From positions 10,979 through 74,978 of the forward strand of contig CAZEDX010000014.1 of assembly GCA_964511015.1 (NCBI GenBank): a DNA stretch of 64,000 nt. The letters are read 5' to 3'. Shown one piece after another: positions 1,215 to 53,745 of the stretch. Numbering within the stretch: the first letter of the stretch is position 1; each line of letters opens with the position of its first letter. Source of the DNA: an uncultured bacterium. GTDB lineage: Bacteria > Lernaellota > Lernaellaia > Lernaellales > Lernaellaceae. Both the position numbers and the translations under genes were made by a program. Under the pieces are notes generated by a model, which ran no database searches, was not told the DNA's origin, and saw only the letters and a list, made by a program, of their open reading frames with translations.

Positions 1215-3239
1215 TTAGCAGCCGCACCCGCTGTCGGGTTTGGAACCTGTCATATCGTCGCTCGAACCGGTGCCGGGCAATCCGTCGTCGTCACTGTCAT
1301 CGTCGCCGATAAGATCATCATCGTCGTCGTCACCGTCATCATCGTCGGCATCATCGTCGTTGTCGTCATCGTTGTCGTCATCGCTATCATCATCACTGTC
1401 GTCATCGGCGTCGTCGTCCACATCGTCGTCCGCGTCATCGTCGCTGTCGTCGTCGGTCGAATCATCGTCCGGCAAAACGCACGAATCCGTGTTTTCGTTG
1501 CATTCTTCCCAGTCGTCACAGGGATTGCCGGTGGAGGCGCACTCGTCGGCGCCTTCATTACAGTATTCCACGCCGTTGCAAAATTCGCCGTCTTGTTCAC
1601 AACGGGGGCTGGCTTCGTCGTACTCGCTCACGCATATGTCGGCATCTTCGTCACACGATTCCTCGCCGTTGCACCACTGGCCGTCATCGGGGCAACGGGG
1701 ATTCGTCATCGGGTCATTGACGCTGTAACACTCGTCATTGTTTTCATCGCATTGCTCGATGCCGTTGCACCATAAGCCGTCATCCACGCACCGGATTCCG
1801 GCGTGAACGAGACACTCACCGAGATAGCAACTGTCGTCGCCGTTGCACCAGATTCCGTCGTCGCAGGGCAGGGTGTTGTTCTGGTAGCTGCAGAAACTGA
1901 CGTTGCACCATTGGTTGGTGCAACCGTTGTTGTCTTCGCATTGCTCGTCGTAGAAGCAGGCGTCGAGGAAGCGGCCTTTGACGAAGGTAACCGCGCCGCC
2001 CGCCTGTACCGATTCCCAAGCCACAAACATCTTGCCCTTCGGGCTCATGCTCACGGTCGAATGCCGTTGGTCGTCATAGACGTAGAAATTGATGATGTAC
2101 TCGTTCGTGAGGGTGGTTCCGTCGGCGAAAAACGGCCGGCCGTAGATCGCGGGCTGCTCGCCGTCGGTGGTTCCCTCCATGCGCCAGGTGACGACAAAAT
2201 CGCCGCTTTCGTCGCAGGCCACTGATTCCACCGCGACATCGGCGTAAGTAAACGTGTTGACCGCCAACTTGTTGCCTATTGCCGCGCCGGCCGCGGTGAA
2301 GCGCTGGGCGAAGGCCCGTGTGGTTTCGCCAGTCGCCGACTCATCCCACGCGACGACGAACGTGCCGTTTTCGGCCATTGCCACATGTGGATGGGCGGGT
2401 GTGCCGCCGCCGGTCGGGTTAATGCGGAACTCGCTTCCTTGCGCCACGCCGTCACCATCGTACAAACGGCCGAAGATGTTGCCGTCCTGCCCCAAGGACT
2501 GCCACACAACCACGGTGTCGCCGGTGGAGTTCATGGCGATTGCCGGGTCAATCTGATCGCCGGTCGTGGTGCTGTTGACGCGGAACTCGTCGCCCAGCAT
2601 CTCGCCGGACGCACTAAAACGCTGGCCGTAAATGCCCAAGCCGCTGCCGTCCTGGCCGGCAGACACCCAAATCACCAAATACGCGCCATTGTCGGCCATC
2701 TCAATCGCGGGAGCGGTCTGATCGGAACTGCTGTAGGTGTTGACCACATTGTCGGCCCCAAGCTGGCCGCCGGTGGCCGTGAAGCGCCGCATATAAATGT
2801 CGGAATCGCCGGTCTGGTTGGAGGCCCAAACCGCCGTGAATTTTCCATCTTCGTCCAACGCCACCGCCGGCGTTACCTGATCGCCGGCGGTATTCGAGTT
2901 GACGGCGAAGTCGCCGCCGACCGGTGAGCCGCCGACGCCGAATATCCGCGCGTAGACCTCCCAATCGCCTACGTTACCGGTGCCAGCAGACCAGACGACA
3001 ACCGACCGGCCGCCGGAACTGGTGGCGACCATCGGGTCGACATGCCGGCCGGTGGATGACGTGTTGATGCCCATCTCTGCGTTCTTGACTGAAGTCGCCG
3101 TAAGATCGACCGGGTTGTCGTTCGCCCCGGAGAGGGAATCAGAGATGATGCCCTCTTCGTCCGACTCGATTTCGCCGCAACCAGCGGCCAAATACGCCAC
3201 AACCAACACCAACATCATCAAGATTCTCTGCATCGGCAT
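1215..3239 (-). CDS. Secreted lipoprotein: 7-repeat beta-propeller-like domain + Myxococcus-type cysteine-rich repeats + poly-Asp linker + terminal GCGC
   Basis: Start assigned to MPMQRILMMLVLVVAYLAAGC (lipobox LAAGC; GGGAGG RBS). The ORF-track start at 3296 is probably too far upstream. About seven repeats of the form xVVxWxSxGxxG...IYGQRF. Then repeated CxDGxWCNGxExC units. Tail ...DDDSDDDGLPGTGSSDDMTGSKPDSGCGC then stop. Confidence 0.8.
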   Translation of the reverse strand: MPMQRILMMLVLVVAYLAAGCGEIESDEEGIISDSLSGANDNPVDLTATSVKNAEMGINTSSTGRHVDPMVATSSGGRSVVVWSAGTGNVGDWEVYARIFGVGGSPVGGDFAVNSNTAGDQVTPAVALDEDGKFTAVWASNQTGDSDIYMRRFTATGGQLGADNVVNTYSSSDQTAPAIEMADNGAYLVIWVSAGQDGSGLGIYGQRFSASGEMLGDEFRVNSTTTGDQIDPAIAMNSTGDTVVVWQSLGQDGNIFGRLYDGDGVAQGSEFRINPTGGGTPAHPHVAMAENGTFVVAWDESATGETTRAFAQRFTAAGAAIGNKLAVNTFTYADVAVESVACDESGDFVVTWRMEGTTDGEQPAIYGRPFFADGTTLTNEYIINFYVYDDQRHSTVSMSPKGKMFVAWESVQAGGAVTFVKGRFLDACFYDEQCEDNNGCTNQWCNVSFCSYQNNTLPCDDGIWCNGDDSCYLGECLVHAGIRCVDDGLWCNGIEQCDENNDECYSVNDPMTNPRCPDDGQWCNGEESCDEDADICVSEYDEASPRCEQDGEFCNGVEYCNEGADECASTGNPCDDWEECNENTDSCVLPDDDSTDDDSDDDADDDVDDDADDDSDDDSDDDNDDDNDDDADDDDGDDDDDDLIGDDDSDDDGLPGTGSSDDMTGSKPDSGCGC

Positions 3240-3422
3240 TGTCGAAGCCTCCCGTTTCCTCGCGTTTGAGAGGGGCCGCTTTCCCCGGTTCGGCAATCAC
3301 GTTTGTATAGCAGTTCCCCAACCACAAAAATTTTTGTTCGCCTCCAAGCTATCTAACATCTTTTTGCCCGTCAACCAACGAAAGCAGCGCCGGCGGCCGG
3401 TGTTGGCGGGGGTAAATAATAC

Positions 3423-5434: not shown

Positions 5435-7714
5435 TCAGCAGCCGCAGCCACTGTCATCGTCATCGTCGCCGCCGCCACCGTCCGCGGTGTCGTCATCATC
5501 ATCATCGTCGCTGTCGTCGTCGGTTACGTCGTCGTCGGTGATATCGTCGTCGGTGATATCGTCGTCGGTGACATCGTCATCGGCGTCGTCGTCGCTGTCG
5601 TCGTCGACGTTTTCCACGCATTCGTCATTGGTTTCGTCGCAAGTCTCGTCGGCATCGCACGGATCGCCCGAGCTGACGCATTGGTCGTTGGTTTCGTCGC
5701 ACGACTCGGTGCCGTTGCAGTACTCGCCGTCATCGCCGCAGGGATCGCCGGGCGAGGTGCACGCGCCGGCCGAGCAGATTTCCTCGCCGTCGCAATAGGT
5801 GCCGTTAGAGGTGCAGGCGATGCCGTCATGGTCGGACCAGCCGTCGGTGGCGACGGTAGTGTCGCACCACTGGCATTCGTTGTCGGGATTGACCGTGCCG
5901 TCGGGGTGGCACGTGTAGTCGATGTAGCATCCGTCGCAGGTCGGGAAGGTCGCTTCGGCGAAATATGCCGGGATCGGGGCAAAGATGTACGGCCATTGCC
6001 TTCCGTCGCCGATGTTTGTGTCGTGTGTGTAGAAGACGAAGCCTACCGCATCGCCCGGATTGGCCGAGAACTGTCCGCCGGCCATATCCATACGTACTTC
6101 GAATTGCACATGCGCCTCAGCGGTCGTGCCGAAAGCCCCCACGATGTCTTCCCCGGCGACAGGCGCGCAGAAAATACCCGCGCCGTAAATCGCCGTGAAC
6201 ATATAGGTCGGCCCGCCGGCTCCATAAATGAACGAAAGATAACCTTCATTGCCGCAAGAAGTCGGCCACGCTTCGTCGTTGTTGCTGTCGAAGTAGATGT
6301 CGATACGGTCGCCACTGCTCAGCGCGACATCGCCGAGGTCGTCAACGGCCAGGTACAGGTAGTCGCCGTTGGCCATCAGGTGCAGATCGTATTCGAGGTC
6401 GCCGATGACCGGAATCTCCAAGGCATCGTCCCACTCGCCGGCGTCCAGGTCGCCGTCAATGGTCGGCGGTTCCTCGGCCCATGGAATGGACACTTGCGGT
6501 CTCTCGAATTCCGGCAGATTTGCCCGTGCATACGTGCCCGGCCTCATCCACATGGCCTCTTCCGGCCACTGCGCCCAACCAAAGGTCGTCCAGTCGGTGT
6601 AGCCGGTGCGCAGACCGATGGAGTCTCCCAGGCCCACGTTCATCTCGGTGGAATTCGAGGCCACCCGGAACTCGAATACCACGTTGCCGTCGCCTTGGAA
6701 TGTGGTGGCCGAATAGACGTGTTCCGCCGGCACCGTGGAGCAGACGGAGTATTCTTGCCACGGCCGGAACATCGCCACGTTGCCGGCGGCGTGGTAGTCA
6801 AGCCAGTAGTTCCCTTCGTCACTGCAGTCAGCCGGCCAGCCGCCATTGTAGTCATTGTCGAAGTACACCATGACTTCGTCCGTATCCGTCAGCGTGGTGT
6901 CATTGGTCACGAACGCGCCATAGAGGAAGCCGGCGTCGGCGAGATAATAGGCCGTATAATCCACCCCGCCAGCCATGCTGGCGGCTTCGACCACCACCGC
7001 ATCGTTCCATTCTTCGTCCTCGAACACACCGTCGATCCGCGGCGGGATGTGAACATACGGGATGTCGATTTCCTCCGGCTCGGTGGCGAAGAACAGGTCG
7101 GCATACAGGGTCGGATCGCCGATCGACGCGTCGGTCGGGTAGAGCAGATACCCCGCGGCGTTGTCGAAATAATACATAGCGAAGCCGATGTCGGCCCCTT
7201 GATCGAGATTCATCGGGTCGACCGTAAAGTCGATCTTCGTTTCATACACCATATGACCGCTGGCGAAGGAGGCCGCGGTGGCCACGATCGCGGCCGGTCC
7301 GGTCACCGCTGTGCACGTGCCTTCGGTCGAGAATGGACGGAAATACGTGTTGTTGTTGCCGGCAACCGTGAACCGACCCTCGTTGCTGGTGACACAGGTC
7401 GACGGCCAAGTGTTGTCGTTGTTGGTGTCGAAATAGAACATCGCCTGGTCGTTCTGCCCGCTGTTGGTGGTATCTCCGGTAACGTCCCATGCCAAATACA
7501 AATATTGGCCGTCGGATTTCATGTAGAAGTAGGTCACCGGCGGCCCGGTCAAGTCGATGCGGTAGGCGCCGGCCCATTCGTCCCAGTCGATGGTTCCGTC
7601 GATGATCGGCGTGATCCGTTGCCAGTAGGTATAGTTGGTGTCCACCGCCCCCGCAGTCGCGACAACCAGCAATAGCACCGCCAGCCCCAAGGCTACTGTC
7701 ACCAGCTTTTTCAT
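5435..7714 (-). CDS. Secreted protein: three CBM9-like domains + Myxococcus-type Cys-rich repeats + poly-Asp linker + terminal GCGC
   Basis: Signal peptide MKKLVTVALGLAVLLLVVATAGA. Three repeats beginning IDGxxDxxEWxxA (CBM9-like). Then a CxxDGxxxxCxWC cluster. Tail ...DDDDDDDTADGGGGDDDDDSGCGC then stop. Confidence 0.75.
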   Translation of the reverse strand: MKKLVTVALGLAVLLLVVATAGAVDTNYTYWQRITPIIDGTIDWDEWAGAYRIDLTGPPVTYFYMKSDGQYLYLAWDVTGDTTNSGQNDQAMFYFDTNNDNTWPSTCVTSNEGRFTVAGNNNTYFRPFSTEGTCTAVTGPAAIVATAASFASGHMVYETKIDFTVDPMNLDQGADIGFAMYYFDNAAGYLLYPTDASIGDPTLYADLFFATEPEEIDIPYVHIPPRIDGVFEDEEWNDAVVVEAASMAGGVDYTAYYLADAGFLYGAFVTNDTTLTDTDEVMVYFDNDYNGGWPADCSDEGNYWLDYHAAGNVAMFRPWQEYSVCSTVPAEHVYSATTFQGDGNVVFEFRVASNSTEMNVGLGDSIGLRTGYTDWTTFGWAQWPEEAMWMRPGTYARANLPEFERPQVSIPWAEEPPTIDGDLDAGEWDDALEIPVIGDLEYDLHLMANGDYLYLAVDDLGDVALSSGDRIDIYFDSNNDEAWPTSCGNEGYLSFIYGAGGPTYMFTAIYGAGIFCAPVAGEDIVGAFGTTAEAHVQFEVRMDMAGGQFSANPGDAVGFVFYTHDTNIGDGRQWPYIFAPIPAYFAEATFPTCDGCYIDYTCHPDGTVNPDNECQWCDTTVATDGWSDHDGIACTSNGTYCDGEEICSAGACTSPGDPCGDDGEYCNGTESCDETNDQCVSSGDPCDADETCDETNDECVENVDDDSDDDADDDVTDDDITDDDITDDDVTDDDSDDDDDDDTADGGGGDDDDDSGCGC

Positions 7715-7917: not shown

Positions 7918-10137
7918 TTAGCAGCCACAGCCGCCATCGTCGTCGTCATCGTCAACGTCGCCCGCGTCGTCATCGCTGCCGGCATCGTCGTCGCCAGCGT
8001 CATCGTCGCCGGCGGCGCAATCCGGATCTTCTTCGTCGAGCAGGTCGTCGCAGTTGTTGTCGATGCCGTCGTCGCAGATCTCGGTCGCTTCGGGGTTCAC
8101 GCTATCGTCGTTGTCGCGGCAGTCGTCACCGCCACAAGCCGTGTCGTCGAAGCCGTCGCCGTCGAGGTCGCAGCTCTCCAGGCCCGTGAACACCAAGCTC
8201 ATCGCCTGCGGACCCTGCGGCACGTCGGTCGCCTGCACCACGATTTCGTAGACCTCTTCTCCCGGTGATTCGATGTACACCTGTTCGACCGGATTGACGT
8301 GGTCCTCGCCCCTGGTCGCAGCCACGTTGGGTTGGTTCGGCTTAAGTACCCAGGGCAGGAACGTTTCGCCACCGCCGACCAGGGAAAGGTCGAGGTCGTT
8401 GACCAGTTCACGCTGAGCGAGAATCGGGCCCGGCGGGTCGGTCCATACCAGCGTGACCTTCACCGCGCCTGTGCCGCGGCGGAACTTCTGCCGCCAGGTT
8501 TCGCCTTGGTCGAGGGTGAGTTGCAGGTAGCTCTGGTTGAGGATCAAATCGAGCGAGTTCGGAATCTGCAGCAGACCGTAGCCGAAGGTGTAGTCCGGAC
8601 CAGGGCGGCCCAGATCCTTCACGCCGTGGATCATCAGCGCCTTCATGAGCGACGGCGGCGGATCGTCGCCGCCGACCACGTTCGCCCACTCCTCCAGCGC
8701 CAGCGCGGTCGCGCCGGTCACCACCGGGCAGGCCTGGCTGGTGCCGCTCATGTTCATGTAGCGCGGCTGGCCCATGTTCGACACGCAACTCTTGGTGCCG
8801 GTGTCGGCCATGCCGCCGCCGGTCTGGTGGCCGGGCGCGGCAACGTCGGGCTTCAAGCGGCCGTCGTCCGTCGGGCCACGGCTGGAAAAGTAGGCGATCT
8901 CGTTCGTCGTCACATCCGTCGCGCCGACGGTGATCGTGTTCTTCGCCGGCACCGGTGGCGGGATCAGGTGGAAGTCGCCCGCGCAGCCGCTGGTGCGCTC
9001 GTTGCCGGCGGCCCAGACGATGATCATCTCGCGGCCGAACTTGCCGCCGATGATCTCATCGATCAACGCCGCCGAGCCTTCGTAATCGCCCAGCCAATCG
9101 CAATCGTAGTTGTTCGGACCGATGTTTGCGCCGATGGAGTTGTTGGCCGTCTGGGCGCCGAGATCCTGAATCGCGTGTCCGTAGCTGGCCGCCATGTCGC
9201 CCGGGTTGTTGTAGAAGAGAATGAACCCGCTGGGCGTGAAGTCCATGGTGATGATGGAAGCCTGCGGGGCCATGCCGGCGTAGGTGCCGCCGGACAGCGA
9301 GCCGTCGCCGGCGACGGTGCACGAAACATGGTTGGCATGGCCGATCATGTCGGGCACGCCGGTCTGGCCGACCACCAGGCGGTCGCCCAGATCGGGGTGC
9401 TTGGCGTTGCCGGTGGTGCCCGGCACGATGCCGCCGTCGTAGACCAGCACCTTCACGCCGTTGCCGTTGACGCTGTACGGCGCCTGGTGCGCGATACCCG
9501 CGCCGACCACCGGCCGTACCGCGTTGTTGTAGAGGCCCCACGGCGGCGAAGGCTGCGTGACCCACATCACCGCGTCGGCCTGCGCCAGCACGTAGGCGTC
9601 TTCCGGCGAGTTGGCCCGCACGAAGGCCGCACCGACCTCAGGCAGGTACTGCAGCAACTCGCCGTCGGCCATTTCGATCGCGGCTTCGATGTCGTCGGCG
9701 CTCACGTCGTCAAAAAAGCGCACGTACAGATCGACACGGCCGTCGCCCACCAGCGCATAATCCTCGATCTTGCCCGCCTGCAGGCGCGGATGGATCTTGT
9801 CTTCCGGCGCCAGTTCCGCCACGTAGCGCAACGGCGAGGGCGATTTCATCGCCGCCCACTGCCGCGGCTGCACATAGGCGAGATAGGCGTGCTCCGGAAT
9901 CGGCACGAGCAACTCGAGCCCGGTGGCGGCCAGCGCCTCGCGCTCGGCCGCGTTGGGCGTGGCTTGGAACTGCACCAACACATGGCGGCCGTTGAACGGC
10001 GCCAGTTTGGCCCAGGCCAACGTCGTGGCGGGCGGCGTGATGGTGCGGCTGCGCAACAGAATCGACGGCCCGGTGGCCGCCGTGGCGACAGCGGTAAATG
10101 CCAGCAACAACAACAGGAGAAGGGTCAGACGTTTCAT
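7918..10137 (-). CDS. S8 subtilisin-like serine peptidase with a C-terminal MopE-like metal-binding motif, poly-Asp linker and terminal GCGC
   Basis: Start at MKRLTLLLLLLLAFTAVATAA (GAGGAG RBS). The ORF-track 987-aa ORF over-extends upstream. Catalytic triad blocks VLVYDGGI (Asp), HANHVSCTVAG (His), GTSQACPVVTGA (Ser). C-terminal CGGDDCRDNDDSVNPEATEICDDGIDNNCD. Ends DDDDDDGGCGC then TAA. Confidence 0.85.
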   Translation of the reverse strand: MKRLTLLLLLLLAFTAVATAATGPSILLRSRTITPPATTLAWAKLAPFNGRHVLVQFQATPNAAEREALAATGLELLVPIPEHAYLAYVQPRQWAAMKSPSPLRYVAELAPEDKIHPRLQAGKIEDYALVGDGRVDLYVRFFDDVSADDIEAAIEMADGELLQYLPEVGAAFVRANSPEDAYVLAQADAVMWVTQPSPPWGLYNNAVRPVVGAGIAHQAPYSVNGNGVKVLVYDGGIVPGTTGNAKHPDLGDRLVVGQTGVPDMIGHANHVSCTVAGDGSLSGGTYAGMAPQASIITMDFTPSGFILFYNNPGDMAASYGHAIQDLGAQTANNSIGANIGPNNYDCDWLGDYEGSAALIDEIIGGKFGREMIIVWAAGNERTSGCAGDFHLIPPPVPAKNTITVGATDVTTNEIAYFSSRGPTDDGRLKPDVAAPGHQTGGGMADTGTKSCVSNMGQPRYMNMSGTSQACPVVTGATALALEEWANVVGGDDPPPSLMKALMIHGVKDLGRPGPDYTFGYGLLQIPNSLDLILNQSYLQLTLDQGETWRQKFRRGTGAVKVTLVWTDPPGPILAQRELVNDLDLSLVGGGETFLPWVLKPNQPNVAATRGEDHVNPVEQVYIESPGEEVYEIVVQATDVPQGPQAMSLVFTGLESCDLDGDGFDDTACGGDDCRDNDDSVNPEATEICDDGIDNNCDDLLDEEDPDCAAGDDDAGDDDAGSDDDAGDVDDDDDDGGCGC

Positions 10138-12440: not shown

Positions 12441-13010
12441 ATGAAAACGATGACCAAGAGCCCGATTCTGTTGTTCTTCCTGCTGCTCGCGCTCGCCTTT
12501 GGGTTGCAGGGGATATTCGCCTGCGACGACGACGATGATGACGACGACACCAGCGCCGATGATGACAACGATGATGACAATGATGATGACGATGACGACG
12601 ATGTCGCCGACGATGACAGCGACGACGACGGCACCGACGATGACGTGTCTGACGACGATGTCACCGACGACGATGTGACCGACGACGACGTCACCGACGA
12701 CGACGTCACCGACGACGATGCGGCCGACGACGACGTGGTGGCCGGTCCGGACTACCCGAAAAACCACGCCGCTACGTGGGACTGCTACCTGTGCCACGCC
12801 GCGGAGCTCATGAATTGCTCCACCGCCGAGCCGCACGGCCATGCGCACTCCGCGCCGGCCGATTGTGTCGCCTGCCATTCCGCCAGCGGCACGAATTACA
12901 ACGGCTGCACCGGCGAGCACGGCGACGACAATTGCACGCTCTGCCACGGCCGCAACATGCACGGGAAGAAGTTCGCCAACTCCGCCCAGTGCCGGGTGTG
13001 CCACCAGTAG
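12441..13010 (+). CDS. Tetraheme c-type cytochrome lipoprotein with a long poly-Asp tether
   Basis: Lipoprotein signal LLLALAFGLQGIFAC. About 80 aa of D-rich linker, DDDDDDDDTSADDDNDDD...DDDVTDDDVT. Four CxxCH motifs (CYLCH, CVACH, CTLCH, CRVCH) within ~90 aa. GGAGG RBS. Confidence 0.8.
   Translation: MKTMTKSPILLFFLLLALAFGLQGIFACDDDDDDDDTSADDDNDDDNDDDDDDDVADDDSDDDGTDDDVSDDDVTDDDVTDDDVTDDDVTDDDAADDDVVAGPDYPKNHAATWDCYLCHAAELMNCSTAEPHGHAHSAPADCVACHSASGTNYNGCTGEHGDDNCTLCHGRNMHGKKFANSAQCRVCHQ
12651..12737 (+). repeat. 15-bp tandem codon repeat (GACGACGAYGTSACC)x6 encoding (DDDVT)n
   Basis: Direct reading shows six consecutive 15-nt units with only wobble differences. Confidence 0.9.
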
Positions 13011-23082: not shown

Positions 23083-23446
23083 CGAAAGCCACCCATCTGA
23101 AGCGGCGGAACACGTTCATCCCGAATTCGGGACGCACATTCCCTTTAACAACTTGAAAAAAAAGTATCATCGGCATCGGAATTAGCAAAGTAACGTACTA
23201 CGCAACCATCTTGGAGGGAGGTTATCTTGGCTATTTACTATGTGGACAACGACTAGTCGGACGATTCGGGCAACGGCACTTTCCGGGCCAGCGTACTTCG
23301 ATAGGGGATTGAGTTGTTTTCGATCCTGGGAGAACACATGGTTATTTTTGCAATTTGGGAGGCGGCTGGAACATGTTGAACGAAGCCCGTCAAAAACAAT
23401 TCCGAATTTGGGACGAGAGTGAATCAATAACAAATCGTTTGGAGAA

Positions 23447-24295: not shown

Positions 24296-24322
24296 TACCA
24301 ACTTGACTGTATCAGCAACCCT

Positions 24323-25054
24323 GTGGTTCTCCTGTACAACGACGCGGACACGCTCGGCCTAGATATCTCTGACGCCATTCTGGAAAAGGACCATTCCGGT
24401 TGGTCGATACTCACTAATGACCGTTTCGAGATCCGTCGCAGGGAAACCAGCGGCCATTTTACGTTCGTAGACAAAACGATTTCAGACCTGAAACATTTCC
24501 CAGAGGGCGAAGAGCCGGTGACTGAAGAAGACCTGACAAACAAATCGATCGATTTGTTGCAGTCGCTCGACGTTCCTTCAGACGAAATCCACGACATTTC
24601 GGTGAAGCGGATCATCGATCAAGCAGAGGATGAATTCGGCTTCGATGTCGGAGATCGTTTAACGGCCGCTTTTCTGGTGTATGTCGACCGCGTGATAGCA
24701 AACACACCGGTCGAAGGATCGTACGCCAAACTGTTGTTCACGACCGAAGGGCGCCTGATAAAAGTGAGCACTAGGTGGCGGAACGTGACCGGGCAAGCAA
24801 TTGACATATTGCCGATCATTGAAGAAGAACTACTTCGCAATACCGCATTGGCTGTTTCTGCCAAAAGCCTTCTTCATGGTAAGGTTGACGTGTTCTATGG
24901 TGGGTATGCCTATGTCGAGGAATTTGGTGAAGACGCGGTCGAACAAAAAACCTTTGACCTGCATTTCGTTTTTCGTTACGCGACGGCTGATTCGCCATTG
25001 ATGTCTGGCGTATTGAATGCGGTGATGGAATCCGCGCTTGCGGGAGGAGTCTGA
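24323..25054 (+). CDS. Hypothetical protein (island)
   Basis: 243-aa acidic ORF, with start/stop overlap with the next gene (ATGA at 25051-25054). Confidence 0.5.
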   Translation: MVLLYNDADTLGLDISDAILEKDHSGWSILTNDRFEIRRRETSGHFTFVDKTISDLKHFPEGEEPVTEEDLTNKSIDLLQSLDVPSDEIHDISVKRIIDQAEDEFGFDVGDRLTAAFLVYVDRVIANTPVEGSYAKLLFTTEGRLIKVSTRWRNVTGQAIDILPIIEEELLRNTALAVSAKSLLHGKVDVFYGGYAYVEEFGEDAVEQKTFDLHFVFRYATADSPLMSGVLNAVMESALAGGV

Positions 25055-25539
25055 TGAAAGCCCGGTGCAGCCTCATCCTTCTAGGTCTCGTACTTATGAT
25101 TGGACAAGAAGCCATCGGCAACCCGATCCAACTTGGCGTCATCGAGGACGCGTTCCAGTTCAAACAGAACGTGTGCCTGGTCTTCCAAGGCTATTTTTCC
25201 AGTGGACCCTACCGTTTGGAGCGTACGATGGACAGTCAGACAATACGCATCATGGACGACTGGGAGATACCGGCGGAAGATCCGCTGAAGGAATGCGGGG
25301 ACTACCGTCTCTATATCTTCGAAGACGCATGCGTACCAGCCGGCCAAGCGTTGTACACCCTGTTCCAGAAGATGCCCAGCGGCTGGGACAATGCCGGTTC
25401 CGAAACCATTCAAGTTGAAGACAGCGGTGAGGAATGCGGCAACGACGACGACTGCGCGGCGCTGATCGATCCGGACGAATACCTGCCGTGTAATTTGGAC
25501 GACGACGACAACGACAACGATGACGGGTGCGGGTGTTGA
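25054..25539 (+). CDS. Small secreted protein with poly-Asp/Asn tail ending GCGC (island copy of the tail family)
   Basis: Signal peptide MKARCSLILLGLVLMIGQEAIG. Tail ...CNLDDDDNDNDDGCGC then TGA. Confidence 0.65.
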   Translation: MKARCSLILLGLVLMIGQEAIGNPIQLGVIEDAFQFKQNVCLVFQGYFSSGPYRLERTMDSQTIRIMDDWEIPAEDPLKECGDYRLYIFEDACVPAGQALYTLFQKMPSGWDNAGSETIQVEDSGEECGNDDDCAALIDPDEYLPCNLDDDDNDNDDGCGC

Positions 25540-25548
25540 GGAAGCAAC

Positions 25549-25908: not shown

Positions 25909-26133
25909 AATTTCAACATAGCCGGTTAGTCTCGTCCGAAATCGGGATTTGTCTTGGACAGTGATCACTCCGGAGCCCAAGTCCGTTTGCGACCTGCGCG
26001 CCGTGGCCGTCGATGTTGATGGCGACGTCTTCGCTGTCGGCGGGGCGGAAAACTCCTCGCGCATGATCACGGTCAAATACTCCCCCACCGGCGACGAGTT
26101 ATGGGTGGCCGAGTTCGACGCGGACAACCCATG

Positions 26134-31227: not shown

Positions 31228-31310
31228 CGATTTCGTCTCGGGTGGCGGACGCGGTGCCGGCGGCGCGCAACCTTCTGACATCAGGTGACAAATTCCTCCG
31301 AAACGGTGTT

Positions 31311-31327
31311 TGGCACGGGTCCTGCTT
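31311..31327 (+). promoter_or_regulatory. sigma54-type promoter TGGCACgggtccTGCtt (GG-N10-GC)
   Basis: Matches TGGCAC-N5-TTGCW with correct spacing. 33 bp upstream of the ATG at 31360. Confidence 0.55.
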
Positions 31328-31359
31328 TTATTCCCCGCACAACACGGAGGAGCGAGAAA

Positions 31360-37609: not shown

Positions 37610-37623
37610 GCGGCGGAGGTAGC

Positions 37624-38160
37624 GTGACTCTCTACTACGCGCTCGATCTGATGATTGGTTTCGGCGCGCCGCTGGCCGTGTACGCACTCTGGCGTCGCGG
37701 TTACATCGATCCGCGGCTGTGGCGAATGTTCTGGTTCGGCTGCTTCCTCGGTCTGTTCTGGGAAGTGCCGGTCTTCGTGCTGAGCAAACACGGGTCGGTT
37801 CCGTTCATCACCTGGGAGCGACCGCTGCCGGCGCACTACCTCGTTTTTCTCGTCGCGCACACGTTGTGGGACGGCGGGCTGTTCGTCGTCGGCGTGTGGC
37901 TGGTGAAACTCCTATGCCCGGCGCCGGCGCTAACGCGTTTCCGTTGGGACGAGTTGGCGGTGCTGGTGGCATGGGGGCAGGTGTCGTCGGTCGGCGTGGA
38001 GGTATCCAGCGTGTGGAACGATGCCTGGGTATACGTTGCGGGCTACTGGTGGAACCCGACGCTGGCCACGCTCAACGGCCACCCGCTTACCTTGTGGCCG
38101 CAAATCCCCTGGCTGGTGGCGCCGGTCGTGTTCTACCTGGTGTTCGTCCGCCGCCGGTAA
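37624..38160 (+). CDS. Hypothetical polytopic membrane protein
   Basis: GTG start with GGAGG 7 nt upstream. 5-6 TM helices. Trp-rich. Confidence 0.5.
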   Translation: MTLYYALDLMIGFGAPLAVYALWRRGYIDPRLWRMFWFGCFLGLFWEVPVFVLSKHGSVPFITWERPLPAHYLVFLVAHTLWDGGLFVVGVWLVKLLCPAPALTRFRWDELAVLVAWGQVSSVGVEVSSVWNDAWVYVAGYWWNPTLATLNGHPLTLWPQIPWLVAPVVFYLVFVRRR

Positions 38161-38212: not shown

Positions 38213-40249
38213 CTAGCAGCCGCACCCACCACTATCGTCATCGTCGTCACCAGCCGCGTCATCGTCATCCGCGTCGGTGTCGTCGTCTGCGCTGTCGTCG
38301 TCTGTCGCCTCGCCCGCCTGCAGATACTCGATCACGTTGACGAGTAGGCGTTGCGCCGGCATGGAATAGGCGTCGGGCGCCTGGACGCCGAAGGCCCACA
38401 GGGCGTACTTCCCGTCTTGGATCGCCAGCGGATAGTGACTCAGATAGGTCAGGTCGCGGCCCAGGAATTCCACGCCTGCCGGCGAACTGGCGTCGTCGTG
38501 CAACCCGAGATACGCGGCCGCCGCGGCCAGCACGTCGAAATCGCTGCCGTCGAGACCCAATTCAAACGGGTCATGCCACACCGCATGATCCAGCGACTGC
38601 GGCGCAAACCCTACGGCCGGATCCAGCTCCAAGCAGTTCTCCGCCGACAGGTACTGCTCGGTGTAGTCGAACACGTGCACGCCGCCGTTGTTGGCAACGA
38701 TCGGTTTGCCGGAGTTGATCAACAGCTTGGCTTTGTCTTCGGTCCACGCCTCCGCGCCGGCGTTGTCGTCGACCATGAACAGCTCGTATTTCGCCAGATC
38801 GGCTTTGCCGCCGAGCGCGCCGATCTCCAGCAAATCCACCGTATAGCCGACGCTGGCCAGGAACTGCTGGAACAGCAGCGCCTGCACATCGTCGCCGGCG
38901 TACACGTAGCCGATGTCCACCGGCTCGCTCTGCACGTATTCGATCAGGTTGACCAACAGGCGCTGGCCGGCGGAGGTGTACATCGACGGACCCATCACCG
39001 CGTAGGCCCATACGGCGTAGTGGATGTTTTCAACCGCCACCGCGTAGTAGTCGGTGTAGCTCTCGCACTGACCGAGGAACTGCACGCCGGCCGGATTCGA
39101 GCCGTCGTTCTGCAGACCCCGAATCGTCATCGGCGAGATGAGCATGGGGAGCGGACCGCCGTTATCGGACTGGTCGACCTCATACGGCTCGTGCCAGATC
39201 GGGTGCGCATCGGCCGCCGGTTCCACTGCCTGCTGGTCGACGACGCCGGCAAAGTGATTCGCGCCGAGGTAGCCGTCGGCGTACGCCAGCAACGACAGGC
39301 CGTCGCCGTCGCCGATGATCGGCTTGCCGGTGTTGAGCACGAGCGCAGCGCGCTCCGCCGTCCAGTCCAGCGTGGTGTCGCTGTCCATAAAGAACACTTC
39401 GATTTCCGCCAGGTCGGGCGCGGCGTCGAGTTCGGCGATTTGCAGCAGTGACACGCGGTAGCCTTCGCCATTGAGAAAGAGGGCGAAGTCTTCCGCGCGC
39501 GAAAGGTTGACGCTGTAGACGTAGGCGATGTCGGTTTCCTCGTCGCCCGTGTCGTCGTCAGCCGCGTCATCGTCGGCCGCGTCATCGTCGGCCGCGTCAT
39601 CGTCGGTCACATCATCATCCGCCGTATCGTCGTCGGCGGTGTCGTCGTCGATCACGTCGTCGTCGATGGAATCGTCGTCGATCACGTCGTCGTCGACCGA
39701 GTCGTCATCCACCAGCGGTGACGCCTCCACCGTCACATCGTCGACGCCCCAGCTCGAAGCCAGCGCGCCGCCGTAGTATGAGAAATAGAAACGGATGCGC
39801 ACGTCGGGCTCGCCGTCCGCCTGCGGAATGGCGATGGTCTGGATCTCGCCGGTCACCGTGCCGTCGGTGGTGTAGACCGGCTGCCAGGTTTCGCCGCCGT
39901 CCAGCGAGATGCTCGCCTGGCCCATGCTGATGGCGCCGGTCTGGGTGAAGTAGTGGTTGAACGACAGCTCCGCGCCGGTGTAGCCGGTCAGATCGATCGC
40001 GTCGGATTCGATTGCCGCGTTCCATACCGGCAGGACACAGCCGGAGCGAACGACTTCGGCGTATTGATCGTCACCGAAATAGGCAATCAGGGCGCTGGCC
40101 GTACCAGGCGTGTGCCACTTGCAGGATGAGGTTTGAAAACCGGTGAATTGCCCCGCGCCGTCAGAGAAATTTTCGAGAAAAACGGTTTCCGCGGAAGCCG
40201 AAATGGCAGTAACCAGGATGACAATCAGGGCGAACCACAGATTTCTCAT
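38213..40249 (-). CDS. Secreted protein with an internally duplicated domain, an internal poly-Asp linker, and a C-terminal poly-Asp + GCGC tail
   Basis: Signal peptide MRNLWFALIVILVTAISASA. Central DDDSVDDDVIDDDSIDDDVIDDDTADDD... separates an N-terminal domain from two homologous domains (SGKPIIGDGDG... / SGKPIVANNGG...). Tail ...DDDDAAGDDDDDSGGCGC then TAG. Confidence 0.7.
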   Translation of the reverse strand: MRNLWFALIVILVTAISASAETVFLENFSDGAGQFTGFQTSSCKWHTPGTASALIAYFGDDQYAEVVRSGCVLPVWNAAIESDAIDLTGYTGAELSFNHYFTQTGAISMGQASISLDGGETWQPVYTTDGTVTGEIQTIAIPQADGEPDVRIRFYFSYYGGALASSWGVDDVTVEASPLVDDDSVDDDVIDDDSIDDDVIDDDTADDDTADDDVTDDDAADDDAADDDAADDDTGDEETDIAYVYSVNLSRAEDFALFLNGEGYRVSLLQIAELDAAPDLAEIEVFFMDSDTTLDWTAERAALVLNTGKPIIGDGDGLSLLAYADGYLGANHFAGVVDQQAVEPAADAHPIWHEPYEVDQSDNGGPLPMLISPMTIRGLQNDGSNPAGVQFLGQCESYTDYYAVAVENIHYAVWAYAVMGPSMYTSAGQRLLVNLIEYVQSEPVDIGYVYAGDDVQALLFQQFLASVGYTVDLLEIGALGGKADLAKYELFMVDDNAGAEAWTEDKAKLLINSGKPIVANNGGVHVFDYTEQYLSAENCLELDPAVGFAPQSLDHAVWHDPFELGLDGSDFDVLAAAAAYLGLHDDASSPAGVEFLGRDLTYLSHYPLAIQDGKYALWAFGVQAPDAYSMPAQRLLVNVIEYLQAGEATDDDSADDDTDADDDDAAGDDDDDSGGCGC
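39541..39720 (-). repeat. 15-bp tandem codon repeats encoding (DDDxx)n internal linker
   Basis: e.g. GCCGCGTCATCGTCG x3 followed by related units. Confidence 0.85.
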
Positions 40250-40655: not shown

Positions 40656-41450
40656 ATGAGTCAAGAGTTGCTGAAGAGACTGGTACTGCTGGTCGCGGTA
40701 CTGGCGGCCTGCGCGCTGGTGGTGGGTTGCGGGGGAGATGACGACGACAATGACGACAGCACAGCCGATGACGACGCGGGCGACGACGACGCGGGCGACG
40801 ATGATGATGATATCGTCGATGACGACGACAATGTCGACGATGATGCCGATGACGACGCCGACGACGACGCGGATGACGATGCCGATGATGACGATTCGCA
40901 TGGGGACGGCGACCAGGCGACCAACGGCGGGTTCGAAACCGGCGATACCACCGGCTGGGATGGCGAATGGCCGTGGGACCAGTTGGTCTATTCCGCCGAC
41001 CCTGGCGACGACGACTCAACGCCCGACGACGACAGCGAATGGTACGTCACGCCGCACACCGGCAACTACGCCGCGTGGTTCGGCCAGACCTTCCAGGAAG
41101 GCACCGCGTGGCTGGGCCAAACGTTCGACGTGCCGGACAACCTGATGGCGGGCACGGTTGGGTTCTGGTACTACATGTCGAAGTTCGGCAACTGCCAGTT
41201 TACCTTCAACGCGACGCTGGTGGATGCCAATGACACCGACCTGGTGCTGGCCAACCTCGGCGCGTGGACAGAAGCCGATGCGGCGTTCATTGCCCACTAC
41301 CAGGAATTGAGCTATCCCCTGTCGGGGACGGAGATTGCCGACCTGGCCGGCCGGGACACGATGTTGCGCTTCGACTGGGCCGGCTCCGGTGCGCTCATCA
41401 GTGCGTGCTACATCTACCTGGACGACGTGACTTTCAACATGACTTGGTAA
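40656..41450 (+). CDS. Lipoprotein with poly-Asp tether and C-terminal domain of unknown function
   Basis: Start at MSQELLKRLVLLVAVLAACALVVGCGGDDDD with GGAGG RBS. About 70 aa of D-rich linker. Confidence 0.65.
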   Translation: MSQELLKRLVLLVAVLAACALVVGCGGDDDDNDDSTADDDAGDDDAGDDDDDIVDDDDNVDDDADDDADDDADDDADDDDSHGDGDQATNGGFETGDTTGWDGEWPWDQLVYSADPGDDDSTPDDDSEWYVTPHTGNYAAWFGQTFQEGTAWLGQTFDVPDNLMAGTVGFWYYMSKFGNCQFTFNATLVDANDTDLVLANLGAWTEADAAFIAHYQELSYPLSGTEIADLAGRDTMLRFDWAGSGALISACYIYLDDVTFNMTW

Positions 41451-51582: not shown

Positions 51583-51669
51583 CGTCGGCCGGCCGGGCCG
51601 CATTTTCCATTTTTTTCGCTTCATTCTATGATAGCCGCCGGTGTTTCCCCGCTCGCAAAGGAGAACCCC

Positions 51670-53745
51670 ATGCGCCGTGCATTGTTGACCACGATTATAC
51701 TGTTTCTGCTCAGCGCTCAGGCGTGGGCCGACGAAATTGCGCTCACCTACCGCTTTGCCGAACCGATGTTGGTTGAGCACGTGGACGGCACAGTCGAGCC
51801 GGTGCTCGCCGGCCTGAATCAGTTCCTGGTGCCCGGCTACCCGATCGTGCCGGCGCAGACGGCGTGGGTCGCGTTGCCGCAGGGCCACGAAGTGGTGGCG
51901 GTGCGCGTCGAGGCGGCCAAGGCGCGCGTGGTGGCGCAGGCCACCGCGGCGTGGTGCCCCAATTTCGGGCCGTGGGGCGAACCGATCGAACATGAAGCCC
52001 AACCGAATTACGACATCTATGCCGGTACGGCACCGTATCCGAGTGCGCGTTTTCAGCCATTGTCGGTGCAGCACAAGCGCGGCGTGGCGATTCTGCCGGT
52101 CGTGCTCTACCCGGTGCAATACGTGCCGGGGAACGAAGAGCTAACCTTTACCAGCGAGTTGACCGTGCGCGTAACCACGCGGCCGCAGCGGCGGGCGGAG
52201 GCAGAGCTGTTGCCGTTCCGCGGCCTGCCCGACGATCTGCGCGAACTGCGCGCGCGCGTCGACAATCCGGAACTTCTCTCCCGGTACGAGGTCGAAACGA
52301 TACCGATGCGCGTCGAAATCGACTACCTGGTCATCACCCCGCAGAAATGGGTGAACGCGCTGCAAGACTACGTGCAGCACAAAGCCGATCTGTTTGGCCT
52401 GCGTTGTGAGATTGTCCCGTTGGAAGACATCCTGGCGCAGATGGCGGGCCAGACCGATCAGAAGAAGATTCGCGACTACATCGTGCAGCGTTACAACGAC
52501 GGACTCCAGTGGGTGCTGATCGTCGGTGACGCCGACCGCGACCGGGAAGTCATCAAGCTGCGTGGTCTGTACGTTTCCGGCACCGACCCCGACGACGGCT
52601 CGACCTACACCGATTCCCGCATGGCCGCCGACCAGTATTATGGCTGTCTGGACGGCAACTACAACCAGAACGGCAACAACTTTTGGGGCGAGCCCAATGA
52701 CGGTCCCGGCGGCGGCGAAGTCGACTTGCTCTATGACGTGCACGTGGGGCGTTTCGCGGTCGAACATTTGTGGGAAGTGAAGATCATGGCCGGCAAGACC
52801 ACGGCGTTCGAAGACGACTACCAAATGCCGCAGCGCCTACTGTTCGTCGGCGAGGAAGCGGACGAAGTCAGCTCCGGCGGCGAGATGAAAGACAAGGTCT
52901 ACGAATATTGTGGCGACCAGACCATGCCGATCACGCGGCTGTACGATTACAACAACCTGTTCAGCCACCAGCACGTCGTAACGGCGATCAATTCCAATCA
53001 GTTCCAGTGGCTGAACCACATGGGCCACGCCGACGTCACCGTCAACATGACGTTCTACCCGTCGACCGTCAACGAGCTGACCAACACGCGTTTCTACCTC
53101 GGCCTGTCGCAGGGCTGCTACTCGGGCAGCGTCGACAGCGTTAGCCTCTATGGGCAGGAATCGGTCGACTGCATGGCCGAGCAGTTCACCGCGAAGACGC
53201 AGCACGCGGCCTTTGCCTACTTCATGAACACGCGCTACGGATTCTACCTGCGCGGCCGGCTCGACGGCCCAAGCAACGTCTATGACTGGGAGTTCGCCGA
53301 TGCGCTGTTCAACGACGGCATCCCGAACATCGGCGCGGCGATGGACAAGGGCAAGGAAGACTGCATCGGCTTGCTCTCGCCGCAGAACATGATGCGCTGG
53401 TCGTGGTACACGCTCTTCCTGTTCGGTGATCCGCAAACGCCGATGCGCCTGAACTGTGACAACGACGGCGACGGTTACATGTCGGCCTACTGCGGCGGGC
53501 TGGGCGAAGACTGCAACGACGTCGACGGCGCGGTGAATCCGGACGCGGCCGAAACGTGCGACGACGGCGTCGACAACAACTGCAACGGCCTGGCCGACGC
53601 CGAGGATCCGGCTTGCGCGGTGGCCGACGACGACGCCGATGACGACGCGGTCGACGACGATGCCGTCGGCGACGACGACGCGGCCGGTGACGACGACGGG
53701 GCGGACGACGATGACAACAACGACGACGGCGGGTGTGGCTGCTGA
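51670..53745 (+). CDS. C25 (gingipain-like) cysteine peptidase with MopE-like metal-binding motif, poly-Asp linker and terminal GCGC
   Basis: Start at MRRALLTTIILFLLSAQAWA with AGGAG RBS. C25 blocks EIDYLVITP, WVLIVGDADRD, DQYYGCLDGNYN, HVGRFAV. Putative catalytic His/Cys in NHMGHADVT and GLSQGCYSG. MopE-like motif YCGGLGEDCNDVDGAVNPDAAETCDDGVDNNCNGLADAEDPAC. Ends DDDDNNDDGGCGC then TGA. Confidence 0.75.
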   Translation: MRRALLTTIILFLLSAQAWADEIALTYRFAEPMLVEHVDGTVEPVLAGLNQFLVPGYPIVPAQTAWVALPQGHEVVAVRVEAAKARVVAQATAAWCPNFGPWGEPIEHEAQPNYDIYAGTAPYPSARFQPLSVQHKRGVAILPVVLYPVQYVPGNEELTFTSELTVRVTTRPQRRAEAELLPFRGLPDDLRELRARVDNPELLSRYEVETIPMRVEIDYLVITPQKWVNALQDYVQHKADLFGLRCEIVPLEDILAQMAGQTDQKKIRDYIVQRYNDGLQWVLIVGDADRDREVIKLRGLYVSGTDPDDGSTYTDSRMAADQYYGCLDGNYNQNGNNFWGEPNDGPGGGEVDLLYDVHVGRFAVEHLWEVKIMAGKTTAFEDDYQMPQRLLFVGEEADEVSSGGEMKDKVYEYCGDQTMPITRLYDYNNLFSHQHVVTAINSNQFQWLNHMGHADVTVNMTFYPSTVNELTNTRFYLGLSQGCYSGSVDSVSLYGQESVDCMAEQFTAKTQHAAFAYFMNTRYGFYLRGRLDGPSNVYDWEFADALFNDGIPNIGAAMDKGKEDCIGLLSPQNMMRWSWYTLFLFGDPQTPMRLNCDNDGDGYMSAYCGGLGEDCNDVDGAVNPDAAETCDDGVDNNCNGLADAEDPACAVADDDADDDAVDDDAVGDDDAAGDDDGADDDDNNDDGGCGC

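Follow-up and report, generated by a model that had tools for sequence, protein, structure and literature searches.

Unrelated Sec-exported proteins encoded in the window (the whole 64,000-nucleotide stretch of DNA analyzed here) and in related genomes share a C-terminal signature that is conserved at the protein level. GCGC at the end of the chain is only the commonest form of this tail; its invariant part is a poly-Asp stretch followed by Gly-Cys near the C terminus. The tail is not independent of known signals, and what is undescribed is its architecture, devoid of a transmembrane (TM) helix, rather than its cysteine motif. It appears to be a novel, "pre-cut" form of cell-surface tagging.

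All seven open reading frames (ORFs) predicted to carry the tail translated on the strands listed below. Six of them end with an Asp-rich stretch, GCGC, and a stop codon, the seventh ends with GGGGCNG, and all seven N termini are signal-peptide-like, exactly as originally claimed. We found no further frame with such an end among all stop-to-stop frames of at least 50 amino acids (aa) in the window. The proteins and their tails are as follows:

1215..3239 (-), secreted protein of 674 aa with a lipobox signal peptide (LAAGC); no Pfam family
1215-1352 (-), tail of the 1215..3239 protein, DADDDDGDDDDDDLIGDDDSDDDGLPGTGSSDDMTGSKPDSGCGC-TAA
5435..7714 (-), secreted protein of 759 aa with a type I signal peptide; no Pfam family
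5435-5605 (-), poly-Asp stalk and tail of the 5435..7714 protein, ending in GGGGDDDDDSGCGC-TGA
7918..10137 (-), S8 subtilase of 739 aa (Pfam)
7918-8010 (-), poly-Asp stalk and tail of the S8 subtilase, ending in DVDDDDDDGGCGC-TAA
13276..15222 (-), FG-GAP/PKD protein of 648 aa (Pfam)
13276-13410 (-), tail of the FG-GAP/PKD protein, ending in DDNDTGVYGGGGCNG-TGA; single-Cys variant (Gly-Cys plus 2 residues)
25054..25539 (+), small secreted protein of 161 aa with a signal-peptide-like N terminus
25492-25539 (+), tail of the 25054..25539 protein, NLDDDDNDNDDGCGC-TGA
38213..40249 (-), secreted protein of 678 aa with a signal-peptide-like N terminus
38213-38302 (-), tail of the 38213..40249 protein, DDDSADDDTDADDDDAAGDDDDDSGGCGC-TAG
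51670..53745 (+), C25 (gingipain-like) peptidase with propeptide, 691 aa (Pfam)
53626-53745 (+), tail of the C25 peptidase, ending in DDDDNNDDGGCGC-TGA

Searches of the full-length window proteins with Pfam placed no family in the tail region. The cargo labels S8, C25 (to which a propeptide is added), and FG-GAP (to which PKD is added) were recovered, whereas "CBM9 triplet" and "propeller" were unsupported by Pfam or NCBIfam.

The DNA pattern DDDxGCGC-TRA, for which about 4 matches are expected by chance in a 596-Gb genome collection, matched at least 110 loci there. Among the matches listed, 103 loci came from nine related metagenome-assembled genomes (MAGs) of the FEN-1099/Lernaellota lineage, and the ∼7 loci scattered outside these MAGs were consistent with chance background. 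The affinity to Myxococcota assumed in the original prediction was not upheld, the organism being Lernaellota/FEN-1099 and not demonstrably Myxococcota. In the related loci and the window, crude gene calls gave 128 tail-bearing genes out of 599. Type-I-like signal peptides were found in 87 of the 128, and 36 had no predicted signal peptide, mostly through locus-edge cuts or mis-called starts. The cargo consists of hydrolases and adhesin-like repeat proteins, types also carried by other sorting signals. GCGC ends were encoded by 36 nucleotide versions, with TAA, TGA, and TAG all in use, which confirmed that the codons differ between copies and, together with the retention of the Cys in diverged orthologues, that the motif is kept at the protein level.

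In orthologues, the tail consists of poly-Asp, Gly-Cys, and 0 to 5 small or hydrophobic residues up to the C terminus. GCGC is not invariant: endings include GGCG, GGCN, GCGN, GCAW, ACAVIG, FCAMI, GCGL, GCCG, and GCGCAM, and those of the C25 peptidase orthologues were GGCG, GGCN, GCGN, ACGC, GCAW, ACAVIG, FCAMI, GCGL, and GCGCVL. As a motif, GCGC therefore stood as the commonest ending but not as the conserved element, which is poly-Asp-Gly-Cys. Among 37 D-rich C termini outside the selection imposed by the scan pattern, 34 had a Cys among the last 4 residues; in 35 unselected tails, the last Cys was followed by 0 (18 tails), 1 (7), 2 (8), or 3 (2) residues, and 14 of the 35 had a single Cys, as did many orthologues. 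The Asp stalk had a median length of ∼56 residues in our sample. Linker length and post-Cys residues varied among the C25 and S8 orthologues, and the Cys was retained down to 36% identity for C25 and 39% for S8 (range, 36 to 78%). More distant C25 homologues have a T9SS C-terminal domain (PF18962) or, in some cases and by eye, a dockerin-like end in the place of the tail, an observation in line with an anchoring role.

The S8 orthologues also retain poly-Asp and Cys tails, except for P0049, which has instead a full signal composed of poly-Asp-GGCGGC, a spacer, a TM helix, and RNRPR. P0049 scored 18.0 bits (E 0.0028; cutoff, 20) against the MYXO-CTERM model TIGR03901, with the match beginning at DGGC; a near-threshold MYXO-CTERM thus lies right behind poly-Asp-GGCGGC in an orthologue of the window S8 subtilase. 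Tripartite ends similar to that of P0049 occur in P0135 and L062:753-1922. The generic signature of MYXO-CTERM is GCGC with invariant Cys (PMC11980579). Both systems combine an N-terminal Sec signal peptide, a disordered linker before the tag, Gly-Cys-Gly-Cys with an invariant and often a second, nonadjacent Cys, and hydrolase and adhesin cargo. They differ in that MYXO-CTERM is served by the myxosortases MrtX/MrtC/MrtP, CPBP intramembrane proteases of Myxococcota, whereas the tail, having neither TM helix nor Arg cluster, offers no substrate helix to an intramembrane protease and stops at about the cut site proposed for myxosortase. In addition, the linker here is poly-Asp, the host is FEN-1099/Lernaellota, and the tails are not scored by the TIGR03901 model: NCBIfam sorting-domain models, MYXO-CTERM included, gave no match to the window tails even at E ≤ 10. 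The claim of an undescribed signal consequently holds for the TM-less architecture but not for the cysteine motif, which is the published GCGC of MYXO-CTERM (PMC11980579). We rate as evenly balanced the proposal that the tail is the signature half of a MYXO-CTERM-class Cys sorting signal, encoded without the TM helix and Arg cluster.

Misassembled, read-through, or frameshifted stops could in principle disguise ordinary tripartite MYXO-CTERM products. A single case lent itself to this explanation: an in-frame ORF follows 25054-25539, and read-through would yield GCGC, a TM helix, and ARGR. Upstream of that ORF, however, a GTG and a Shine-Dalgarno-like GAGGAAG were visible by eye; a database search returned no homologues for it. 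For the tail genes as a whole, downstream segments encoding a TM helix plus basic residues did not exceed the control level in any frame (1/126, 0/126, and 4/126 tails in the three frames versus 11/457, 15/457, and 14/457 controls), and 56 of the 128 tails had another in-frame stop within 15 codons. Together with the use of all three stop codons and the presence of the same ends in MAGs whose contig names (NODE_, k141_, multi-megabase contigs) suggest different assemblers, these counts refute an artifact or recoding, whose probability we regard as negligible, and establish that the chain truly stops at the Cys motif, as predicted.

Since one stop codon suffices to turn the tripartite form into the tail form, and tripartite relatives are known (P0049, P0135, and L062:753-1922), the tails might also be nonfunctional remnants of nonsense-truncated MYXO-CTERM-like signals or a compositional quirk, with GCGC surviving fortuitously or because a DNA cassette had spread. 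This is very improbable and is largely refuted by the conservation data: more than 100 independent tail genes in at least nine MAGs, 36 nucleotide versions of GCGC with three stop codons, and a Cys kept in 36 to 78% identical orthologues despite drift of its flanks. Furthermore, no vestigial TM coding sequence was found downstream.

The same genomes encode N-terminal lipoproteins of a mirror design, with lipobox-Cys-Gly(Gly)-DDDD and sometimes GCGCG-DDDD. Four in the window are without the C-terminal tail:

12441..13010 (+), lipoprotein, GIFAC|DDDDDDDD, with a poly-Asp stalk of ∼75 aa and four CxxCH heme motifs
40656..41450 (+), lipoprotein, ALVVGC|GGDDDDNDD
59078..61429 (-), FG-GAP/ASPIC lipoprotein, AAGCDCGGGDDDDD, the mirror image of DDDDGGCGC
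61526..62773 (-), PNGase-F-like lipoprotein, FTAC|VGDDDDNDD

Such proteins (lipobox; Lgt, LspA, and Lnt) resemble the tail proteins in having Gly-Cys near the mature terminus and a Gly-Gly-poly-Asp stalk, and the two groups overlap very little: by a crude predictor, lipobox signal peptides were ∼4- to 6-fold rarer among tail proteins (Fisher P = 0.0004 to 0.004). The tail Cys nevertheless sits at the opposite terminus, after Asp/Gly and without a helix, whereas the lipobox Cys follows hydrophobic residues and is shown to Lgt by the signal-peptide helix.

The mirror relation and the lipobox depletion point to a role equivalent to that of an anchor. We see an even chance that the tail is a lineage-wide, Cys-dependent C-terminal sorting or anchoring tag of FEN-1099/Lernaellota, a function that, like the enzyme behind it, we infer; the putative Cys modification is probably a lipid. 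Going by sequence features, the proteins would be exported by Sec through their N-terminal signal peptides. The thiol(s) of the terminal Gly-Cys(-Gly-Cys) would then gain a covalent membrane anchor, most likely a lipid donated by an Lgt-like or novel transferase, as proposed for MYXO-CTERM. The 0 to 5 post-Cys residues might be left on or trimmed, compare CAAX processing, and the enzyme would remain attached to the cell surface or envelope via its polyanionic Asp stalk, possibly following type II secretion. No sortase acting within the membrane would be required, because the chain already stops at its most C-terminal Cys or shortly thereafter, where the myxosortase cut is proposed. Several observations go against an anchor: no TM helix presents the tail Cys to a membrane enzyme, the D-D-G-G ahead of it is not a lipobox, and the 1215-3239 protein bears lipobox and tail together. 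Among 58 membrane proteins encoded beside tail genes (sample of ∼0.8 Mb), we found neither a CPBP/myxosortase nor an additional Lgt, and no other enzyme recurred. The variable number of residues past the last Cys is also hard to reconcile with enzymatic recognition at a set distance from the carboxylate.

Alternatively, but in our estimation unlikely, the tail may be a recognition or secretion tag or the mark of a released form, the proteins being soluble after loss of the TM helix. [quoted passage not shown] Yet pure release requires no conserved terminal Cys, which nearly all unselected D-rich tails have, and the likeness to lipidated N termini and the rarity of lipoboxes favor an anchor equivalent.

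Quite unlikely, too, is a thiol- or metal-binding function, in which CxC and the carboxylate stalk would bind metals or sulfide minerals, or the tail proteins would be joined by disulfides among themselves or to a partner in the envelope; the proteins would then be retained nonlipidically, or metals scavenged. Chemically, C-G-C is a good ligand for soft cations and poly-Asp for hard ones, and C-x-C also occurs in ∼15% of the N-terminal lipoproteins of these genomes. A MopE-like metal-binding motif (PF11617) appears in precomputed Pfam lists for homologues, and a Cys-framed acidic stretch of the MopE-like type was seen by eye just before the stalk in the window S8, C25, and small proteins. The many single-Cys tails, on the other hand, imply that a two-thiol chelate or CGC redox center is not required, a metal site need not occupy the extreme C terminus, and stable disulfides seem less likely in a lineage reported to be most abundant in anoxic water (PMC9324843).

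A lipid-modified C-terminal Cys would recall eukaryotic prenylation motifs (CAAX box; Rab CXC, CC, and CCXX), in which a Cys likewise lies 0 to 4 residues from a free C terminus without a TM helix, and of which CXC, CC, and C-plus-aliphatic variants are found among the tails (GCGC, GCCG, CCGL, CAMI, and CGFL). The CAAX protease Rce1 belongs to the CPBP family, as does myxosortase. However, prenylation substrates are cytosolic and handled by soluble prenyltransferases, whereas the tail proteins have Sec signal peptides, their modification would be extracytoplasmic, and their post-Cys spacing is not fixed. [quoted passage not shown] Unlike the tail, these signals comprise either a TM helix with a basic cluster or a folded ∼80-aa domain, and none of them scored on the window proteins. 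Finally, inspection by eye of the DNA 3' of 7918-10137 and 38213-40249 showed an inverted repeat rich in G+C and then a T-run, resembling an intrinsic terminator.

Seven exported proteins of the window had been proposed, in an original prediction made from the sequence alone, to end in an Asp-rich stalk and a Gly-Cys motif that acts as an undescribed anchoring or sorting signal. All seven open reading frames (ORFs) translate with the ends that had been claimed.

1215-3239, minus strand: GCGC, then stop
5435-7714, minus strand: GCGC, then stop
7918-10137, minus strand: GCGC, then stop
25054-25539, plus strand: GCGC, then stop
38213-40249, minus strand: GCGC, then stop
51670-53745, plus strand: GCGC, then stop
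13276-15222, minus strand: GGGGCNG end (ends GCNG)

No further GCGC-type end was found among the window's other stop-to-stop frames with a length of 50 residues or more. As predicted, the codons for GCGC vary from copy to copy, and TAA, TGA, and TAG stops are all present among the tails. On the 3' side of the genes at 7918-10137 and 38213-40249, we noted by eye in the printed sequence a G+C-rich inverted repeat with a T-run after it, and because of this intrinsic-terminator-like sequence, the two ends look like genuine gene termini. Signal-peptide-like N termini are present on all seven proteins. The proposed cargo domains stood in part: Pfam and NCBIfam supported an S8 peptidase (7918-10137), a C25 peptidase plus propeptide (51670-53745), and an FG-GAP/PKD protein (13276-15222), but left the "CBM9" and "propeller" labels unconfirmed and gave no family for the remaining four of the seven. 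The S8, C25, and small (25054-25539) proteins have a short Cys-framed acidic motif (C..G.D..DP.C) immediately ahead of their polyAsp stalk, at 7918-8169, 53572-53640, and 25420-25500, respectively. In the homologues P0007 to P0012, P0033, and P0049, it is annotated as PF11617 (MopE-like metal-binding). The protein at 1215-3239 (minus strand) carries both a lipobox (YLAAGC) and the C-terminal tail, a combination seen in only ∼3 of 90 tail proteins, and would be anchored at both ends if both signals work.

The window C25 and S8 proteins are 100% identical to proteins of a 78-kb NCBI contig. Their nearest named relative, a C25 peptidase, comes from Candidatus Lernaella stagnicola, a member of the phylum Lernaellota (formerly FEN-1099). 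A DNA pattern for DDDxGCGC followed by TAA or TGA, run on 185,579 species-representative genomes (596 Gb), found at least 110 loci, against ∼4 expected by chance. Among the matches listed, 103 were in nine MAG assemblies, two of which are named FR-FEN-1099-1 and HK-STAS-FEN-2, and ∼7 were in scattered unrelated taxa, in short ORFs without polyD, and are chance background. Three of the nine MAGs encode S8 orthologues with 62 to 63% identity to the window S8 protein. Since the matches are concentrated in these MAGs and S8 orthologues occur there, the tail belongs to a lineage and not to the window alone. Loci L111 and L113, included as the context of distant orthologues, contained one extra tail apiece.

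Lookups of the window proteins as exact sequences gave nothing, and genome context was therefore drawn from relatives. Crude gene calls on 102 related loci and the window yielded 599 genes, 128 of which encode a D-rich end that includes a Cys among the last five residues. These tail genes stop with TGA (94), TAA (27), or TAG (7), their stalks have a median length of ∼56 residues, and GCGC, encoded by 36 nucleotide strings, is the most frequent form of the end. Type-I-like signal peptides were predicted for 87 of the 128, and most of the 36 genes without a predicted signal peptide are locus-edge cuts or have mis-called starts. The tails that the scan pattern had not selected form a less biased sample. 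Here, a Cys lies within the last four residues in 34 of 37 D-rich C termini, with endings that include GCGC, GGCA, GCCGC, GCGCGC, CGFL, CCGL, GCGS, GMCG, and GCGG, and the last Cys is 0 to 3 residues from the C terminus. Orthologues of the C25 protein (36 to 64% identity) end in GGCG, GGCN, GCGN, ACGC, GCAW, ACAVIG, FCAMI, GCGL, or GCGCVL, and those of the S8 protein (39 to 78% identity) end in GGCF, GCGCQA, GGCGF, NGCGS, GCGCAM, GCGCMM, GCCG, ICGGCGL, or GCGGCWI. These varied ends indicate that the invariant feature is polyAsp-Gly-Cys near the C terminus, not GCGC; its apparent order is polyAsp, a few Gly/Ser/Asn, Gly-Cys, 0 to 5 small or hydrophobic residues, and the C terminus. That the tail is a decaying remnant is, in our estimate, very improbable. 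Among 35 unselected tails, 14 have a single Cys, and the frequency of such tails speaks against a role in metal, mineral, or disulfide chemistry, which we regard as quite unlikely. One family of ∼250-amino-acid (aa) proteins with a type I signal peptide (L006:5129-5869, L064:3326-4084, and L087:7132-7977) has polyAsp near the N terminus (AFAQDDDT...) as well as in the C-terminal tail (...DDDDGCGC).

The Cys motif is that of MYXO-CTERM (TIGR03901), the sorting signal of Myxococcota, which is short, with an invariant Cys, a generic GCGC form, and often two nonadjacent Cys (PMC11980579; Haft preprint). In the MYXO-CTERM model, the protein is exported by Sec and held by its C-terminal helix, an unidentified transferase, which may be Lgt-like, then joins a lipid to at least one Cys, and T2SS-dependent display follows (PMC11980579). 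Guo, Haft and Wall (2025) state that the lipid transferase of this pathway is unidentified. Like MYXO-CTERM proteins, the window carriers have an N-terminal signal peptide and a signature Cys motif, GCGC in six and GCNG in one. In contrast, their motif is not followed by a hydrophobic transmembrane (TM) helix or an Arg-rich cluster, the chain ending at the Cys or 1 to 5 small residues on, and the tails remain below the curated HMM cutoff (20 bits). Indeed, when the TIGR03901 HMM was run, as had been proposed with the prediction, it matched neither the full window proteins at an E value of ≤0.1 nor the isolated tails even at an E value of ≤10.

Homologues connect the two architectures. The S8 orthologue P0049 (42% identity), whose gene comes after a T2SS M gene, ends in ...DDDDDDGGCGGCASVRGGPGHGLIPLGLLLLLASAYSITRVLLRNRPR and scores 18.0 bits (E value of 0.0028; cutoff, 20) on TIGR03901, with an alignment that begins at DGGC; P0135 shows a similar architecture and a weaker score. 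Compared with the window S8 end, they show that one family has both tripartite and stop-terminated forms, polyD-Gly-Cys preceding either a predicted helix and basic cluster or a stop. Moreover, a protein encoded in a tail-rich Lernaellota MAG (L062:753-1922, minus strand) ends in GGSGGCGG, a spacer, a TM helix, and RRKK, so that tripartite Cys signals and TM-less tails coexist in one genome; this protein matched no NCBIfam model. Read in this way, the window tails are the MYXO-CTERM signature in a chain that ends at or just beyond the most C-terminal Cys. The tail is thus not categorically new, as its cysteine signature is that of the MYXO-CTERM class; what is new is the TM-less "pre-cut" architecture, the polyAsp stalk, the abundance, and the host lineage.

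The claim that the chain stops at the Cys motif was borne out: a stop codon follows directly, and downstream TM segments are not in excess in any frame. In the read-through frame, another stop occurs within 15 codons for 56 of 128 tails, and hydrophobic segments follow 8% of tails versus 8% of control genes. A TM-plus-basic segment was present downstream, in the three frames, of 1, 0, and 4 of 126 tails versus 11, 15, and 14 of 457 other genes. As such segments are no commoner than in controls, we rejected a TM helix hidden by read-through or frameshift, and we assign next to no probability to an artefact or recoding. The sole frame-0 case is probably the small window protein at 25054-25539. 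A 119-aa four-helix membrane ORF (25549-25908, plus strand) lies in frame 9 nucleotides past its TGA, and read-through would give GCGC, a TM helix, and ARGR. By eye, this ORF has a GTG and a Shine-Dalgarno-like GAGGAAG upstream. It has no Pfam family, no PDB relative, and no homologue in 5.8 billion proteins, and for want of a homologue it was rejected as a conserved processing enzyme.

Four window lipoproteins have, at the opposite end, a lipobox Cys that directly adjoins Gly and polyAsp.

12441-13010, plus strand: lipoprotein, FAC followed by DDDDDDDD
40656-41450, plus strand: lipoprotein, VGC followed by GGDDDD
59078-61429, minus strand: lipoprotein, AGCDCGGGDDDDD
61526-62773, minus strand: lipoprotein, TAC followed by VGDDDD

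The N-terminal Cys of such lipoproteins is the lipidated mature end generated by the Lgt/LspA pathway. Nearly all of the 43 N-terminal-polyD proteins in the loci and the window are of the lipobox-Cys-polyD type, and several have GCGCG-DDDD, which is DDDD-GCGC exactly reversed. Almost none of these lipoproteins has a C-terminal tail. Conversely, with a crude predictor, a lipobox was found in 3 to 5 of ∼90 tail proteins versus 40 of 225 other signal-peptide proteins, i.e., it is ∼4- to 6-fold rarer (p = 0.0004 to 0.004). The same stalk beside a terminal Gly-Cys at the opposite end, in a largely nonoverlapping set of proteins, suggests by analogy that the C-terminal Gly-Cys and stalk are equivalent in role to the N-terminal lipidated Cys. 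In the lipoprotein at 12441-13010 (..GIFAC, then DDDD..), a polyAsp stalk of ∼75 residues is followed by four CxxCH haem-binding motifs, and the protein resembles a tethered multihaem cytochrome c.

The carriers are secreted, their terminal Gly-Cys is conserved, the motif is identical to that of MYXO-CTERM, and the helix is absent. We give about even chances that the tail is a tag that anchors proteins to the envelope through its Cys, most likely by way of a lipid. After export, a lipid or another covalent anchor would be attached to the thiol(s), residues past the Cys would be tolerated or trimmed, and the enzyme would stay bound to the envelope or the surface of the cell. The polyanionic stalk is presumably disordered. 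We speculate that the C terminus, last out of the Sec channel, might stay briefly at the membrane surface and meet a membrane enzyme there, and that divalent cations may bridge polyAsp and anionic lipid head groups. Tentatively, and on the doubtful side of even, the tail may be a genetically "pre-cleaved" MYXO-CTERM, in which a periplasm-facing enzyme lipidates a free, soluble Gly-Cys(-Gly-Cys) without a TM helix or sortase-type cleavage. If so, the surface enzymes that Lernaellota hold on polyaspartate stalks by a C-terminal lipid anchor would number roughly a hundred or more, the step of the MYXO-CTERM pathway that modifies the Cys would be separable from the helix and protease, and the acyl or lipid transferase could be found by profiling tail-bearing versus tail-less genomes. 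It is unlikely that the carriers are soluble and that the tail serves secretion or recognition; if the Cys is unmodified, a strictly conserved terminal thiol on many exoenzymes of an anaerobe still wants explaining. In one lineage, more than 100 secreted hydrolases and adhesin-like proteins end at the cysteine signature of MYXO-CTERM. If the Cys is modified, C-terminal anchoring works without a helix and without a sortase, and there is a comparative-genomic route to the missing MYXO-CTERM lipid transferase. The polyAsp-Cys module could serve as a compact display tag.

A membrane enzyme accompanying the tails had also been envisaged. Neighbours of tail genes in the related MAGs were screened, and the 58 membrane proteins obtained revealed no recurrent partner and no CPBP protein, the family of the MYXO-CTERM protease myxosortase, in ∼0.8 Mb of sequence, too little for absence to weigh. 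They include PMT_2 (8), GT87 (3), MBOAT (2), one YhfC-type protein, and one rhomboid protease, and their NCBIfam matches were mostly to Nuo models. Next to tail genes, glycosyltransferases of the GT-C fold are unusually common (PMT_2, 8/58; GT87, 3/58; L017, L068, L078, L108, L006, L012, L079, L102, and L113), a pattern that may be genome-wide or may be linked to the tails. In the window, a 190-aa membrane ORF (37588-38160) had no family or relative in our searches.

To our knowledge, the prokaryotic C-terminal sorting signals described to date either are folded domains or consist of three parts (motif, membrane helix, and basic cluster) and are the substrates of a sortase-like enzyme embedded in the membrane. 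Searches of the seven proteins or tails with NCBIfam and Pfam gave no match to PEP-CTERM, GlyGly-CTERM, JDVT-, Synerg-, or CGP-CTERM, the T9SS CTD, or LPXTG. Unlike substrates of CAAX/Rab prenylation, which are cytosolic with a fixed Cys-to-end distance, the carriers have Sec signal peptides and a distance of 0 to 3 residues. Unlike the lipobox Cys, which follows [LVI][ASTVI][GAS] at the end of a signal peptide, the tail Cys is C-terminal and follows D-D-G-G. Neither NCBIfam (June 2026) nor Pfam contains a model of the tail. A profile HMM of six window tails matched only the window's own small protein among 1.84 billion representatives; the composition correction of HMMER hides this tail, which is why HMMER-based annotation misses it and why the carriers are currently annotated without localisation information. 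The open-access literature on Lernaellota, FEN-1099, C-terminal Cys signals, myxosortase/JDVT-CTERM, and C-terminal lipidation does not describe the tail, and a term search of the Lernaellota naming paper for C-terminal signals, lipoproteins, sortases, and Asp-rich tails came back empty. In distant C25 homologues, the position of the tail is taken by the T9SS C-terminal domain (PF18962) or, in some C-terminal sequences inspected by eye, by dockerin-like ends, and these apparent swaps fit the usual "choice of anchor" pattern.

Two paralogous prepilin-type proteins (31285-32145 and 32397-33173, both plus strand) have an N-terminal methylation motif and end in ...SICGM or ...SICGL, with a Cys three residues from the C terminus and no polyAsp; T2SS pseudopilins and type IV pilins are possible identities. 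The region 23400-28750 has a third-position GC of 0.57 to 0.70 versus ∼0.8 elsewhere in the window and may be an acquired island. Besides the gene of the small GCGC protein, it includes one for a DUF6345 protein (23447-24295) and three small membrane ORFs without a Pfam family (25549-25908, the only one searched for homologues, with none found; 27754-28251; and 28276-28713). Finally, two adjoining paralogous genes (46309-48423 and 48420-50495, both minus strand) encode secreted DUF3857 proteins without a tail, the second of which also has a transglutaminase-like core.
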